A stretch of 4,829 nt of DNA from a virus (taxonomy: Duplodnaviria > Heunggongvirae > Uroviricota > Caudoviricetes). The notes beneath the pieces are model-generated. The model searched no databases. It was not told the origin of the DNA and worked only from the letters and a program-made list of their open reading frames with translations. The DNA lies in IMG/VR virus record IMGVR_UViG_2579778982_000027, one strand, 5' to 3'. Position numbers and translations under genes: made by a program. Shown here piece by piece: positions 86 to 4,829 of the stretch (the stretch's first letter is position 1; each line of letters starts with the position of its first letter).

Positions 86-190
86 TTACTCTAATGCATC
101 AGCAGGCCATGTTCCATTTACTTCATAAGTGTTTTTTAAATTAACAGCATAAAAAGCATTTTCCGAAGGGGAATAAATATATTGATTCAT
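86..190 (-). pseudogene. Tail-fibre assembly protein (Tfa) N-terminal stub, truncated after 34 codons
   Basis: Hand translation from ATG at 190-188 gives MNQYIYSPSENAFYAVNLKNTYEVNGTWPADALE, then TAA at 88-86. The FYS..NAFY...L...YE..G.WP.DA.E pattern matches the N-terminus of phage Tfa chaperones as I recall them (normally about 180-200 aa). None of the three downstream frames continues a Tfa-like sequence. Confidence 0.5.
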
Positions 191-191
191 A

Positions 192-581
192 TTATCTTCC
201 TATTGCGATAATCATAGTTCCATACAAACCATTTCCGGTTGATACTTTTAAGGTTACTGATGTCCTTGTTGTCGTGTACCCCATAAGTTTAAAGGTCGGA
301 GCAGCGGTTAATGAGCCATCTGACCATAAGGCACTAACAGCCAGTGCGCCTGAAGGAAATGCAATAGGGAAATTACCTGTAGTTCCGTTAGTGTCCGCCC
401 CATAAACATTCATCGAAAACATTTGGACAATATGACCACTTGGTAACTGAAACCAGTTTTTGCCAGATGGAAATGCAGACATATCTGGTATCTGATTTTC
501 CCCTGTTCCCACATTCCGTTTTGCCGCTTCTCCCAAACCAACGTTTAAGAAAATGCAGAGATTACGGCTAACTGGCATCAT
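192..581 (-). CDS. Phage tail-fibre protein, C-terminal variable (receptor-binding) domain fragment
   Basis: 129-aa ORF whose N-terminus carries LNVGLGEAAKRNVGTGENQIPDMSAF, the conserved constant/variable junction motif of side tail fibres in Mu/P1/e14-type invertible systems (from memory). Its 5' end faces the invertase start, as stfE faces pinE in e14. An in-frame TAA (591-593) lies just upstream, so no constant N-terminal fibre portion is attached in this orientation. Confidence 0.6.
   Translation of the reverse strand: MMPVSRNLCIFLNVGLGEAAKRNVGTGENQIPDMSAFPSGKNWFQLPSGHIVQMFSMNVYGADTNGTTGNFPIAFPSGALAVSALWSDGSLTAAPTFKLMGYTTTRTSVTLKVSTGNGLYGTMIIAIGR
528..553. other. Candidate hix/gix/cix-like 26-bp crossover site for the invertase
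   Basis: TTCTCCCAAACC-AA-CGTTTAAGAAAA: two imperfectly inverted 12-bp half-sites around a 2-bp core, with the AAACC/NN/GTTT centre typical of Hin-family sites (consensus half-site roughly TTATCAAAAACC). It lies in the codons for the junction motif (IFLNVGLGE), 55 bp before the invertase ATG. Match to consensus is partial, about 10/12 and 8/12 per half. Confidence 0.3.
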
Positions 582-608
582 CCCCGGTTTTTATTCAGGG
601 GATCCATC

Positions 609-1208
609 ATGCTTATTGGCTATGTCCGCGTATCAACAAATGACCAGAATACAGAATTGCAGCGTAACGCGCTGGAGTGCGCAGGATGTGAACTGATTTT
701 TGAAGATAAAATCAGCGGAACGAAATCAGCCAGACCGGGATTGAAAAAACTGCTCAGAACGCTATCAGAAGGAGATACGCTGGTTGTCTGGAAGCTGGAC
801 AGACTGGGCAGAAGTATGAAACACCTGATCACGCTTATTGAGGAATTGCGGGAAAAAGGTGTTAATTTCCGTAGTCTGACGGACAGCATTGACACATCAA
901 CACCCATGGGGCGTTTCTTTTTTCACGTCATGGGAGCTTTAGCCGAAATGGAACGTGAATTAATTGTAGAGCGTACACTGGCCGGGCTGGCAGCAGCACG
1001 CGCACAAGGACGCATTGGCGGACGTCGCCCGAAGTTGACAAAAGAACAACACGAGCAAATAGCGAGGCTGATTAAAAACGGTCATGACAGGAAACAACTG
1101 GCGATCATTTACGACATCGGCATATCGACGATTTATCGTTATCACCCTGTAGGCGATATACAGGCTGAAGAAACAATCAGGCAGATTCAGGAAAATGAAA
1201 ACCGCTAA
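609..1208 (+). CDS. Serine site-specific DNA invertase, Hin/Gin/Pin/Cin family
   Basis: 199-aa ORF with family hallmarks: MLIGYVRVSTNDQ (catalytic Ser in VRVST), LVVWKLDRLGRS, SLTDSIDTS, MGRFFFHVMGALAEMERELIVERT, GRIGGRRPKL and a C-terminal HTH (LAIIYDIGISTIYRY). Closely resembles Pin/Gin as I recall them. SD-like AGGGGA sits 6 nt before the ATG. Appears intact. Confidence 0.95.
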   Translation: MLIGYVRVSTNDQNTELQRNALECAGCELIFEDKISGTKSARPGLKKLLRTLSEGDTLVVWKLDRLGRSMKHLITLIEELREKGVNFRSLTDSIDTSTPMGRFFFHVMGALAEMERELIVERTLAGLAAARAQGRIGGRRPKLTKEQHEQIARLIKNGHDRKQLAIIYDIGISTIYRYHPVGDIQAEETIRQIQENENR

Positions 1209-1230
1209 TCTGACCATTAGCGGTTTTGCG
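1197..1230. terminator. Bidirectional rho-independent terminator between the convergent invertase and U genes
   Basis: Perfect 11-bp inverted repeat AAACCGCTAAT (1199-1209) / ATTAGCGGTTT (1216-1226) with a 6-nt loop CTGACC. T-run follows on the plus strand (GGTTTTG) and an A/T-rich run on the minus-strand side (TTTCATTTTC). It overlaps the invertase stop codon (1206-1208) and lies just 3' of the U stop (1235-1237). Confidence 0.6.
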
Positions 1231-1234
1231 TTAA

Positions 1235-1729
1235 TCAAAACAGCCCTTTAACGGAGCTGGCCGCGCTGTTAAGGGATGATGTGACCTTATCTTTGAAGCC
1301 GGACAGCATATCACTGAACGATGAGGATTGCAGGCGCTCCCGCAAATCCTCATCACAGCGTTCAAGAGTCAGTGAAAATTCTATCTTTTTCGCCTTACCG
1401 TAGCGATCAAACTCGGAGCGGGTCGTATTCGTTTCAGTCAGTACATACATGCCGTAAATCTGTCCGACGCCATCAATCAGAGGCCAGGGGCGTCCTGTAT
1501 ACGCCTGCGTGGTCAGCAGCGACAGCGACACTTCGCCACCTGTGATTTCAGGATAAAGCACACCAGAAAGCACGATGCGATCATCGCCTGCCCCGATATA
1601 CTGCCAGCTTGCTGAACGGTTAACGCGTTCATTTTTCACATGCCGCCAGCTTTTATTTTGCTGTAACTGCTGATGCGGCAATGTGCGCAGCTCAAAAACA
1701 AACATGCCGTAGATCATCATCATGGCCAT
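1235..1729 (-). CDS. gpU: Phage tail protein U (P2 gpU-like)
   Basis: 164-aa ORF directly after T; start region overlaps the T stop (TGA 1736-1738) with a GGAG just upstream. N-terminus MAMMMIYGMFVFELRTLPHQQL...SWRH resembles P2 gpU as I recall it, and size is typical. True start may be one of the later in-frame ATGs (1723 or 1720), which have better spacing from GGAG. Confidence 0.8.
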   Translation of the reverse strand: MAMMMIYGMFVFELRTLPHQQLQQNKSWRHVKNERVNRSASWQYIGAGDDRIVLSGVLYPEITGGEVSLSLLTTQAYTGRPWPLIDGVGQIYGMYVLTETNTTRSEFDRYGKAKKIEFSLTLERCDEDLRERLQSSSFSDMLSGFKDKVTSSLNSAASSVKGLF

Positions 1730-1735
1730 GACTCC

Positions 1736-4579
1736 TCAATCTTTATCGTAAAAACTGCCACGTCCGGCACGGTCGCGTCGTTCCAATTCTGCCCTGACCA
1801 TTTCACCGACCAGTTTCGCCAGTTCGCGGGGATTCTGCGTAACAACGTTATGCAGATGAACATGAATTTCACCGCCAAATCCGGAGACAACAGGCTCCCG
1901 GTTACGGGAAGTTGCAGGAACTGATGCCACTGGCGATCGTATGGCCTCCGCCACCGGGCGGGAGCTGGCCGCAACAACAGGGACCAGCGCCGGAGGCAGA
2001 GGAGTCGGGACCACGGGTGTGATGTTGATTGCGGAAGCAGGCTTACTGACCTGCGCAATCTTCCGCTCCTGCCACTCCCCACGAACAGCAAGTGCGCGGG
2101 GCAGGTTCTTAAAGACAATATCGCCGGGGCCAATGCGTTTTTTCGTCTCATCAACCAGCTTACCTGTGTTATCAGCAATTTTGCTGAGTCTGCGTAGCGT
2201 ACCGGTATTGCTGTCTGTGAGCGGTTTGTTGTCTTTGGGTTTATCACCTCCGGTGCCATTGCCATTTTCCACAGGCTTCGGCGGATTGATTTTCGCCAGG
2301 TCCCCCTGAAGCAAGGCAACCTTGTCCTGAAGAATGGCCGCACGCTGTGCGTCTTCGATTTTCTTGCGCGCCCTTTCAGCTTCATCCGGAAGGACGCCAA
2401 GTTTTTCAAGTATCCACGCCAGCGTATCCAGTAGCATTTTTGCAGGCATCAGAACAAGCTGTAACGCACCGCCAAGAACGTTACCGAATATCTCGCCAGC
2501 ACTGGTACATTTATCCAGCGTTTCCTTGCTGGACTCCATCGGTGACAGCAGCGATTTAAACCAGTTAAACACCTGGCTGATCCCGCTTCCGATTGCGTCA
2601 AAAACAGGACCAAACCGTTCAAAAGTTTCGCGCAACGGGGCCAGCCTTTCCATAATCCCGCTGAACACCCCGGCAAAAAATGCCCTGATGGGATCCCAGT
2701 ATTTCCAGATAAGAACGGCAGCTCCGGCAAGCGCAGCCACGATAAGACCAACCGGACTGAACAGCGCCCCGATAGCACCCCCCAGCAAAGAAACGGAACC
2801 CGTCACCATTCCCCATAGTGCTGGCAGGAGCCTGACAGCATTCATTGATCCGGTCAGGAGGGAAAAACCAAGACGCAGTTTTGCCAGTGGGCCAGCAAGC
2901 ACACCAAGAGCAAGCGACAACGAGCCTACGGTTGCAGTCACTGCCAGCAGCGCACCGCCTGCAATCAGTAGCTGGCGCGTCAGTACAGGATGGGCCTGCG
3001 CCAGTGCCGTCACCTTTGAGACCACCCGCGTTAGCCACTGCGTGACAGAACGCAGCGGACCGTCAATCAGATCTGCAATGCGGATGCGCAACCCTTCCCA
3101 TGCACTGCCGAGTGATTTCAGATCGCCGTCAAGGTTGTTGGCCATAACCTTTGCCGTGCGCTCAGCCTCACCGCGCGCGCCTTCAAGTTCTTTTCTCAGT
3201 TTAGGTAAGGAGCCGTCACCTGCCGCATCAACGAGGGCCATAAATGATGTGAAAGCCTCTTCTCCGGCAATGTCCTTAAAGAACGATACCCGGTCAACTT
3301 CCCCGTATTTGCGGGTGGCTTTATAAAGGTCGGCCAGCAAATCCTCCATCGGGCGCATTTTGCCGTTCGCATCAGAGACGGACACGCCCAGCTCTTTCAG
3401 AGCTTCTGCCGCCGCCTTTGGCGGTGATGCCAGACGAGCCAGGCTGGCACGCATTGCCGTCCCGGCATCACTTCCCCTGATACCCATATTCGCCAGTACG
3501 CCCGCCATCGCTGCGGCCTGCTCCAGCGATATTCCCAGCTTGCCCGCCACCGGACCTGCATATTTCATGGTTTCACCCAGTGCGCGAAGGTCAGTGTTGG
3601 TACGGGTAAACGCTGCGGTAAGTGTGTCACCGACCCGGTCCATCTGGTCAGCAGAAAGGCCGAACTGCGTCAGGATATTTGAGCCAATATCCGCCGTCTC
3701 GCCGAGATCCATACCGCCAGCCGTTGCCATGCTCAGCACGCCGGGAAGCGCAGCCTGAATGGCCTGCGGAGTAAAACCAGCCATTGCAAGAAATGCCTGC
3801 CCACTGGCGGCATCGCCTGCGGTGAACTGCGTTTCAGAGCCAAGTTTTAACGCCTGCTCACGCAGCGCCTTAAACTGCGGGCTGTTTTTGTCGATTCGCG
3901 TCAGTGCCTGAACGCGGGACATCTCTTTCCCGAACCCGATCGCAGGCTGCAAAAAACGCCCGGCAGCATAGCCGCCCGCAGCTGCCGCACCAATTGCCAG
4001 CGCACCACCTGTTTTCAGTTTTCCCGCTGTTTCCTGTGCGCGCGAATACCGCTCACGCGCCCGCGTTACACGCGCAAGCGCCTGCCGTTCGCGTTCAAGC
4101 TGGTTGTTGTACTGTTCGGTGCGTCTGATGGCCTGCTGGATGGTGTTATCGCTGCCTGTCAGGGAAATGCCGTGGCGTTTCAGCTCTCCGCCAAGCTCCC
4201 GCATTTTCTGAATTTCCCGTGTGCGCGATTCATTCAGGCGTTCAAGCCGGGTGCTTAACTGCTGCATCAGCTTTTGTTGTTTTTCGCTGAGCACTGTACC
4301 CGTGCGTTGTAACTGATTAAGGGCGTTAAGCTGGCGTCGTGCTTTCACGATACCCGCATCCGCTTTACTGACAGCGTCGCGGGCGCGCTCAAATGAACGC
4401 GCCTGACGCTCGAGATTTTTGATCGCCCCCTGCGTTCGCTGGATGGAGTCACCAAACTGCCCCATCAGGCGGCGTGCGTTTTCTGCAGGTCGGGTCAGCC
4501 TGTCAACGGCGCTGAAAGCGACCCGGATATCAAGAGTCTTCATTGTCTGCATTCCCGCTGCGAAGTGCCGCCCGCTCAC
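1736..4579 (-). CDS. gpT: Phage tail tape-measure protein (P2 gpT-like)
   Basis: Single long ORF (947 codons from GTG at 4579). Coiled-coil-rich charged N-terminal third, a central TQFTAGDAASGQAFLAMAGF-type tape-measure core, long Gly/Ala/Leu hydrophobic segments around residues 530-630, and position between chaperone E/E' and U. The first codon is GTG; in-frame ATGs at 4552 and 4543, the latter with GGGA about 9 nt upstream, make 1736..4543 (935 aa) a plausible alternative. Confidence 0.9.
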   Translation of the reverse strand: MSGRHFAAGMQTMKTLDIRVAFSAVDRLTRPAENARRLMGQFGDSIQRTQGAIKNLERQARSFERARDAVSKADAGIVKARRQLNALNQLQRTGTVLSEKQQKLMQQLSTRLERLNESRTREIQKMRELGGELKRHGISLTGSDNTIQQAIRRTEQYNNQLERERQALARVTRARERYSRAQETAGKLKTGGALAIGAAAAGGYAAGRFLQPAIGFGKEMSRVQALTRIDKNSPQFKALREQALKLGSETQFTAGDAASGQAFLAMAGFTPQAIQAALPGVLSMATAGGMDLGETADIGSNILTQFGLSADQMDRVGDTLTAAFTRTNTDLRALGETMKYAGPVAGKLGISLEQAAAMAGVLANMGIRGSDAGTAMRASLARLASPPKAAAEALKELGVSVSDANGKMRPMEDLLADLYKATRKYGEVDRVSFFKDIAGEEAFTSFMALVDAAGDGSLPKLRKELEGARGEAERTAKVMANNLDGDLKSLGSAWEGLRIRIADLIDGPLRSVTQWLTRVVSKVTALAQAHPVLTRQLLIAGGALLAVTATVGSLSLALGVLAGPLAKLRLGFSLLTGSMNAVRLLPALWGMVTGSVSLLGGAIGALFSPVGLIVAALAGAAVLIWKYWDPIRAFFAGVFSGIMERLAPLRETFERFGPVFDAIGSGISQVFNWFKSLLSPMESSKETLDKCTSAGEIFGNVLGGALQLVLMPAKMLLDTLAWILEKLGVLPDEAERARKKIEDAQRAAILQDKVALLQGDLAKINPPKPVENGNGTGGDKPKDNKPLTDSNTGTLRRLSKIADNTGKLVDETKKRIGPGDIVFKNLPRALAVRGEWQERKIAQVSKPASAINITPVVPTPLPPALVPVVAASSRPVAEAIRSPVASVPATSRNREPVVSGFGGEIHVHLHNVVTQNPRELAKLVGEMVRAELERRDRAGRGSFYDKD

Positions 4580-4748
4580 GCCAGCTAACCACTTCGCCGG
4601 GCGTCATCATGAAGATTTCGGCGGGCGACCAGTTAAAAATAACGGCAATATCTGCCACAAAGTCTTCTATGTGCTCAAAGCACACAACCGTGATCAGGCT
4701 TCCGTCGCCTGTTCGTTCTTCCCGCCAGAGTCCGCACCGCTCAAAAAA
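4530..4748 (-). CDS. E' extension of tail assembly chaperone (E+E' -1 frameshift product, gpE+E'-like)
   Basis: The -1 frame relative to E stays open from the slippery site to TGA at 4532-4530 (ERCGLWREERTGDGSLITVVCFEHIEDF...NADNEDS) and overlaps the start of T, as in P2 E/E' and lambda G/GT. Stand-alone initiation at ATG 4766 is not required. Confidence 0.55.
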   Translation of the reverse strand, partial: FFERCGLWREERTGDGSLITVVCFEHIEDFVADIAVIFNWSPAEIFMMTPGEVVSWRERAALRSGNADNEDS

Positions 4749-4829
4749 TTTACGGCAACCACACATAACTGAATAAAGTCACGGGATGCCATTTTTTTGA
4801 TCGTCACTTCATCCAGTCGCGGTGATGTC
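4694..4829 (-). CDS. Tail assembly chaperone E (gpE-like), 3' portion; 5' end lies beyond the window
   Basis: Frame is open from the window edge (...TSPRLDEVTIKKMASRDFIQLCVVAVNFLSGADSGGKNEQATEA) and ends at TGA 4696-4694. It is the short ORF immediately upstream of the tape-measure gene and carries the slippery heptamer. Confidence 0.6.
   Translation of the reverse strand, partial: TSPRLDEVTIKKMASRDFIQLCVVAVNFLSGADSGGKNEQATEA
4742..4748 (-). other. Slippery heptamer T_TTT_TTG for programmed -1 ribosomal frameshift
   Basis: On the minus strand the E zero-frame reads AAT TTT TTG (plus 4750-4742). The X_XXY_YYZ heptamer TTTTTTG places the -1 frame onto GAG CGG..., which is the E' ORF. Same heptamer class as reported for the P2 FETUD operon (from memory). 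Confidence 0.55.

Follow-up and report, generated by a model that had tools for sequence, protein, structure and literature searches.

A Gin/Cin/Pin-type invertible tail-fibre segment in a P2-like Escherichia coli prophage probably still flips despite interruption by an IS66-family element

The window analysed here, i.e. the whole 4,829 nt stretch of viral DNA, is best explained as part of an invertible tail-fibre segment of the standard Gin/Cin/Pin type, namely its invertase end, in a P2-like prophage; the segment was interrupted by an insertion sequence (IS) yet still flips, and we estimate the probability of this reading at just under 0.9. It draws on sequence features of the window, on their homology to mapped elements and on the finding of both segment orientations in near-identical isolates.

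The DNA invertase gene lies at positions 609–1208 on the plus strand and, according to its open reading frame, its Pfam domains and its alignment, encodes a 199 aa member of the Hin/Gin/Cin/Pin subfamily of small serine recombinases. The gene had been predicted to be full length with its catalytic serine and helix-turn-helix (HTH) intact, and this was borne out: the two Pfam domains Resolvase (PF00239, residues 3–135, E 6e-52) and HTH_7 (PF02796, residues 138–180, E 1e-12) are both complete, and the nucleophilic Ser9 in the motif YVRVS9T aligns with that of Gin. Residues 1–184 align with the crystallised Gin of phage Mu, scoring 308 bits as against 113 bits for the gamma-delta resolvase, and the HTH matches the Hin DNA-binding domain structure 1HCR (E 2e-11). 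By alignment, the window enzyme is thus closer to the invertases than to the resolvases; its protein identity reaches 77 % with Mu Gin and 75 % with P1 Cin. Since H106 and M114 correspond to the wild-type Gin state, there is no obvious Fis-independent mutation in the enzyme. Its basic helix-B residues and the R153–L154 pair probably correspond to the residues that Hin requires for Fis activation; the numbers of these Hin residues are given elsewhere (PMC3798978).

An identical protein, annotated as WP_000905082.1, is found at the same position in the complete E. coli genome JP538 and in two O157:H7 genomes, the draft contigs described below encode it as well, and in total seven of the compared loci, from E. 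coli of several backgrounds, encode this protein. The gene is preceded by a probable ribosome-binding site, AGGGGA at 597–602 on the plus strand, 6 nt upstream of the ATG, as read from the sequence; the region upstream of Mu gin shows the same arrangement. A simple scan of positions 1–1800 found no sigma-70-like promoter for the invertase, and we therefore claim none. At its 3′ end, the terminator scan found a perfect 12 bp hairpin, AAAACCGCTAAT-6 nt-ATTAGCGGTTTT at 1198–1227, which overlaps the invertase stop codon. Located in the 26 bp gap between the invertase gene and the convergent gpU gene, it probably serves both as a shared terminator.

Upstream of the invertase gene lies the invertase-proximal crossover site, a hix/gix-like sequence of 26 bp (TTCTCCCAAACC AA CGTTTAAGAAAA) at positions 528–553, with the 2 bp core at 540–541. 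With a score of 17.0, against at most 12.2 for every other 26-mer, it is the only hix-like site in the window. Intact relatives carry exactly two crossover sites in inverted orientation, the cores being 1,848 bp apart in JP538. There, the partner site, TTCTTGATTACC TT GGTTTGGGAGAA, is located inside the fibre gene H (positions 7591–7616 in L001 and 9638–9663 in L006). In the source genome, we infer that the partner site likewise lies in H, beyond the IS and outside the window. The window stops 89 bp into the IS, and so, at nearly the same point, does the closest draft contig, L013; the partner site and the remainder of the segment were therefore deduced from assemblies of the same lineage.

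The original prediction had also named a Fis enhancer in the 5′ coding region as usual for Hin-family genes, to be sought as two Fis sites about 48 bp apart in 650–800. Two candidate sites were indeed found in the 5′ coding region that are homologous to gin and cin and synonymously constrained, and their spacing is exactly 48 bp, but their position is 631–693. The proximal Fis-type site (I), TATCAACAAATGACC at 631–645, is centred on 638, i.e. 97–98 bp from the crossover core, and the distal site (II), GCGCAGGATGTGAAC at 679–693, is centred on 686. Site I is identical in Mu gin and differs by one base in P1 cin, site II differs by one base in each of the two, and both fall in the stretch that corresponds by homology to the enhancer given in the P1 record at cin CDS nt 19–90. 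Fis motifs are marked by G/C at −7/+7 and by Y-R steps at positions 3–4 on each side (PMC4784862). Nowhere in the window but at 631–693 do two (G/T)NNYRNNWNNYRNN(C/A) sites occur at a spacing of 48 bp. However, this degenerate pair pattern is expected 0.35 times per shuffled window and matched at least once in 64 of 200 shuffles, i.e. not above chance, and was rejected as stand-alone evidence.

The case for the enhancer therefore rests on homology and on synonymous-site constraint. For the latter, 49 distinct invertase coding sequences were compared, comprising those of the window, gin, cin and viral-contig homologues at 84–100 % protein identity. The entropy at third codon positions was 0.28 and 0.55 bits in the two Fis cores, compared with 1.10 bits in the spacer and 0.95 bits in the rest of the gene, and among the 477 possible pairs of 15-mers spaced 48 bp apart the six most constrained at third codon positions all overlap the Fis-type pair. 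The distance between the crossover core and the centre of site I is conserved as well, being 97–98 bp in 76 of 78 loci, in agreement with the native Hin site-to-enhancer spacing of roughly 100 bp (PMC3798978). As judged from homology and constraint, a recombinational enhancer is present at 631–693.

On the other side of the crossover core lies the fibre cassette, which had been thought to be degraded together with its chaperone gene, a view that holds for the latter only. The 129 aa ORF at 192–581 on the minus strand is complete and matches the gp53-like C-terminal domain (PF21882); the cassette proper extends from 192 as far as the crossover core at 541, and the codons upstream of the core are read-through. 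An identical 129 aa product is encoded in apparently complete prophage late regions, both of the P88 gene order (L011) and of the canonical P2 order (L010 and L014), as well as in the P1-like element L012. In L006 and L008, the same cassette DNA is in frame with the constant part of H, giving a fibre of 493 aa. The missing N-terminus of the ORF is thus accounted for by its being a silent alternative 3′ exon of the tail-fibre gene H.

Several observations on related cassettes may be added here. The identical exon stands together with the identical 26 bp site next to different invertases at L012 9227–9616 and L010 10001–10390; the invertases beside the shared exon and site measure 190, 197 and 199 aa and belong to P1-like elements as well as to P2-like elements of both the canonical and the P88 order. 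In a Mu-like prophage (L009 9361–9999), the fibre gene is joined to a near-identical allele of the exon. Fibre cassettes appear, from these sequences, to move as modules between phage families. In the flipped O157:H7 strain BB24-1 (L003 5970–6699), the annotation splits the fibre gene into two pseudogene fragments and lists a gp53-like ORF separately. The flanks are nevertheless 100 % identical to those of strain FRIK944, and these pseudogene calls look like an annotation consequence of orientation and not like real decay.

The tail-fibre assembly (chaperone) gene, tfa′, is by contrast truly broken. Its remnant at 86–190 on the minus strand starts with an ATG at 190 and retains native codons 1–33 (190 down to 90), followed by a Glu codon and a stop contributed by the IS end, so that the translated ORF is 34 aa long, whereas the full-length gene of relatives encodes 147 aa (444 bp). 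Homology to the tfa′ of intact prophages begins at base 90, and the exact 34 aa product was called on four other contigs. Positions 1–89 hold, on the minus strand, the left, tnpA-proximal end of an ISCro1-like element of the IS66 family, with the terminal inverted repeat ending at 89 and the tnpA start codon at 36–34. Two E. coli chromosomes contain ISCro1-like ends with 100 % identity to this stretch, and their annotation assigns the element to the ISCro1 family and puts tnpA at this end. On the minus strand the end reads GTAACCGGCTC..., and the opposite end of the IS reads GTAAGCGACTCG.... IS66-family elements have terminal inverted repeats starting with GTAA, a tnpA-tnpB-tnpC (transposase) gene order and an 8 bp target duplication. 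Correspondingly, one copy of an 8 bp target-site duplication, TCTAATGC as read on the plus strand, is found at 90–97 of the window; the second copy, at 17476–17483 of L006, adjoins the other IS end and the 3′ part of tfa′. The genes tnpA, TnpB_IS66 and DDE_Tnp_IS66 of the IS are carried by L006, and the assembled IS measures 2,699 bp. By its ends and genes, the disrupting element is a member of the IS66 family resembling ISCro1.

The same tfa′ stretch is uninterrupted in L001. Both junctions are present in the draft assembly GCA_001285845.1: in one N-free stretch, the 5′ part of tfa′ runs through GCATTAGA into GTAACCGGCTC..., and in another, ...CGAGTCGCTTAC is followed by GCATTAGA and the 3′ part of tfa′, a second tfa, the Collar-type exon, the crossover site and the invertase gene. 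Since both junctions occur with the 8 bp duplication in one assembly, they indicate a simple IS insertion inside the invertible segment, which enlarges it from 1,848 to about 4,555 bp; for comparison, the C segment of P1 measures 4,256 bp according to the P1 record. Neither IS junction is present in the complete E. coli genomes. Among 5,426 of these, bases 1–89 were never contiguous with the rest of the window, and the window alignments begin at base 90, 480 or 527.

ISCro1-like elements have hit the fibre/chaperone region at least three separate times, i.e. at 86–97 of the window, at L009 10090–10131 and at L097 7179–9908. In the lineage of the window, the IRL end adjoins codon 33 of tfa′, and at the same tfa position a Mu-like prophage contig (Logan ERR1512448) has the opposite IS end, GTAAGCGACTCG; the cassette allele of this contig shows four differences from the window in the cassette/tfa′ part. 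Strain QA-1986 630 carries a different ISCro1 insertion, between H and tfa. Given the hits at the same tfa position in both IS orientations, the region may be a target hot spot for ISCro1-like elements.

That the segment inverts is seen in a pair of O157:H7 genomes. Between FRIK944 and BB24-1, the flanks show 100 % identity over 7,116 and 13,303 bp and the encoded invertase is identical, while the 1,917 bp between the sites are exactly reverse-complemented with a single mismatch; the inversion end-points coincide with the crossover site at 528–553. From this comparison, which is one between assemblies and not within one culture, the segment inverts by exchange at the 2 bp core.

For the IS-bearing lineage, the evidence comes from four draft assemblies. 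The contig L013 (GCA_001265535.1) covers the entire window and its IS junction with four mismatches and ends 2 bp past window base 1. Between gene D and the crossover core, L007 (GCA_001283405.1) is 100 % identical to L013 along 8,163 bp; past the core, however, it continues with the Collar-type exon, and the gp53-like exon, the tfa′ stump and the IS end are found on the constant part of H instead. Likewise, the window is identical to L006 and L008 over bases 1–541 and departs from them at base 542, directly after the AA core, where it has C and they have G. Only about 18 bp are common to the junctions, which makes site-specific exchange a more economical explanation than homologous recombination. 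As the same IS junction occurs in both orientation states, the inversion postdates the arrival of the IS. The switch thus kept working on its own substrate after the insertion, so far as can be read from these assemblies. The window-type junction was found in 24 complete E. coli genomes and the flipped junction, i.e. this H constant part joined to this cassette, in 0 of 5,426; as these counts were uninformative, we used matched pairs instead.

Gene order in L006 and L007 was taken only from N-free stretches, as both contain a single-N scaffold join (at 12803 and 8846, respectively). Read across these joins, the assemblies present false orders, i.e. an apparently truncated tape-measure gene beside the IS and a tfa that runs on into part of H. 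The idea of a deletion between direct sites, combined with a second IS in the tape-measure gene, was considered for L006 and L007 and rejected since the orders concerned cross the joins. In public drafts, single-N joins of this kind would lead automated analyses of gene context astray. The four differences that separate the window from L013 all fall within 247 bp of the tape-measure gene (2378–2624), and such clustering suggests a small patch exchanged by recombination and not scattered mutation.

IS elements often give rise to deletions beside them. It is therefore conceivable that a deletion next to the IS removed the partner site in the source genome itself, leaving an enzyme that is intact yet locally idle, with or without activity in trans, and the window and L013 both end inside the IS with the far side unseen. 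However, assemblies of the same lineage show the far junction with its target duplication, as is characteristic of a simple insertion, and the flipped state within this lineage speaks for later activity, so that we consider a frozen switch improbable.

A still smaller chance falls to the idea of the original prediction, in which the invertase is an orphan acting purely in trans, the local substrate being dead and the enzyme retained for hix-like sites elsewhere in the genome. The cut in tfa′ and the single crossover site in the window would agree with this, as would the identical 26 bp sites beside other invertases in co-resident or unrelated prophages. In JP538, such a site stands beside the invertase of a second P2-like prophage, of canonical order, whose product is 82 % identical to the window invertase; the P1-like L012 and the P2-like L010 and L097 carry the identical invertase-proximal site as well. 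A precedent also exists, as PinQ of the Qin prophage acts in trans by inverting the e14 P segment (PMC12529663). With identical crossover sites in co-resident prophages, cross-action of the window invertase is plausible, and this part of the prediction stands; action in trans is, however, a known property of the family and not new. What is not supported is the orphan with a decayed local substrate. The adjacent site, the enhancer and the cassette show no damage, the IS has entered the segment itself and both its junctions occur in the same lineage, isolates with identical flanks carry the IS-bearing segment in either orientation, and the other prophages sharing the site have their own invertase. 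The preferred reading therefore remains that of an enzyme flipping its own adjacent segment.

A whole-window search against the 5,426 complete genomes found the region in hundreds of P2-like prophages, the closest being that of JP538 with 99.9 % identity over positions 90–4829. In JP538, the order is J, I, H and tfa, then tfa′ and the H′ exon on the opposite strand and the invertase gene, followed by U, T, E, FII and FI on the opposite strand and finally D and ogr; the prophage adjoins ihfA-pheT. In agreement with this order, the tail-gene context of the window covers 1235–4766 on the minus strand, with gpU at 1235–1729, the tape-measure gene T at 1736–4543/4579 and gpE (E/E+E′) from 4530, all convergent with the invertase gene and assigned by Pfam and the annotation of relatives. 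The adjacency of the invertase gene and a convergent U is also found in the deposited phage genomes P88 and Xuanwuvirus P884B11. On the basis of gene content and order, the source element is a P2-like E. coli prophage with the P88/Xuanwuvirus arrangement. The name Sp13, used for a prophage of O157 Sakai, was dropped, since Sp13 is described as being without most morphogenetic genes, which does not fit.

The tail block FI-FII-E-T-U (window 1209–4829; L011 and L013 compared with L010) is inverted relative to the canonical P2 order. An origin of this inversion by the invertase itself was considered and rejected: no hix-like site above background was found elsewhere in the loci scanned and hence none at the borders of the block, and the order is common to P88 and Xuanwuvirus P884B11.

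The idea that the switch has been domesticated by the host, its inversion being kept because it serves the bacterium, for instance by yielding a fibre-derived protein that blocks phages from outside, could appeal to the precedents reported for PinQ and PinR (PMC12529663; bioRxiv 10.1101/2025.03.28.646004) and to the identical invertase protein in the seven loci from several E. coli backgrounds, but it is very unlikely, as the prophage of the relatives keeps the full late gene set from terminase to tail and the deposited phages share the arrangement, so that ordinary phage function suffices as an explanation.

For the reading of a working switch, the chemical steps, the Fis dependence and the phenotype of each orientation can be proposed by analogy with established Hin/Gin biochemistry. 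Invertase dimers would bind the site at 528–553 and its inverted partner inside H, beyond the IS, while Fis would bind 631–645 and 679–693 in the invertase's own 5′ coding region, and the three sites would assemble into an invertasome on supercoiled DNA. Ser9 would then cut at the AA/TT core, the subunits would rotate by 180 degrees and religation would flip the segment, thereby swapping the C-terminal receptor-binding exon of H along with its cognate chaperone gene. The orientation captured in the window has the gp53-like exon and tfa′ in the silent position. By inserting about 2.7 kb into tfa′, the IS destroys this chaperone and lengthens the segment from about 1.85 to about 4.55 kb; inversion nevertheless continues, because the IS leaves both crossover sites, the enhancer and the enzyme untouched. 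In one orientation, H would carry the Collar-type exon with an intact chaperone and a normal fibre is expected, whereas in the other a fibre without its chaperone is expected.

Gin and the G segment of Mu are among the most similar known systems. There, too, the invertase gene sits immediately beyond the segment, its 5′ end facing the crossover site, the Fis sites occupy the same codons, the residue numbering is the same, the distance from the core to Fis site I (about 97 bp) agrees within 1 bp and two alternative fibre C-terminal exons each come with a chaperone gene. It differs in that the host phage of the window is P2-like, the core is AA instead of GA, the cassettes are of the gp53-like and Collar types, the invertase is the 199 aa form with an unrelated C-terminal tail and one chaperone gene is broken by an IS. 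The Cin/C segment of P1 is a fibre exon and chaperone switch, too, with an enhancer covering the same two Fis-type 15-mers, but its crossover site adjoins the 3′ end of cin, so that the geometry between enhancer and site differs. Salmonella Hin resembles the window system in the 26 bp site, the 2 bp core and the two-site Fis enhancer in the 5′ coding region (PMC3798978), but hin lies inside its own segment and switches a promoter, not a fibre exon. The residues for Fis activation are probably conserved between Hin and the window invertase.

The segments of the P2-like prophages in enteropathogenic E. coli (EPEC) E2348/69 are the same kind of locus, and sequencing of clonal cultures revealed different orientations side by side there, with Hin homologues driving the change (PMC4272514); that work contains no IS-interrupted segment, and one EPEC locus has three sites in a shufflon-like manner, compared with two in the relatives of the window. 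PinQ (Qin) and PinR (Rac) of E. coli K-12 are Hin-family enzymes as well but reside in defective prophages, whereas the window enzyme keeps its adjacent substrate and the late region is largely intact in relatives. The locus is thus an already-known kind of system with an already-catalogued protein, i.e. a textbook phage host-range switch.

Since one orientation would be left without its chaperone, it is tempting to speculate that the IS turned a two-receptor switch into an ON/OFF fibre switch, and that the invertase also flips segments of co-resident P2-, P1- and Mu-like elements, whose 26 bp site is identical, or recombines prophages with one another, although we regard this as doubtful. Should the IS-bearing switch indeed alternate fibres with and without their chaperone, it would illustrate on a small scale how a host-range switch can degrade in nature to ON/OFF, and if the invertase recombines between prophages, large chromosomal inversions would be the consequence. 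The importance of the locus lies mainly in correct annotation, as the invertase protein is encoded in many sequenced E. coli and, with draft contigs ending at the IS, such loci look truncated. A short fibre ORF without an N-terminus beside an invertase is a silent exon and not a sign of decay, and inversion need not stop when an IS enters the invertible segment.
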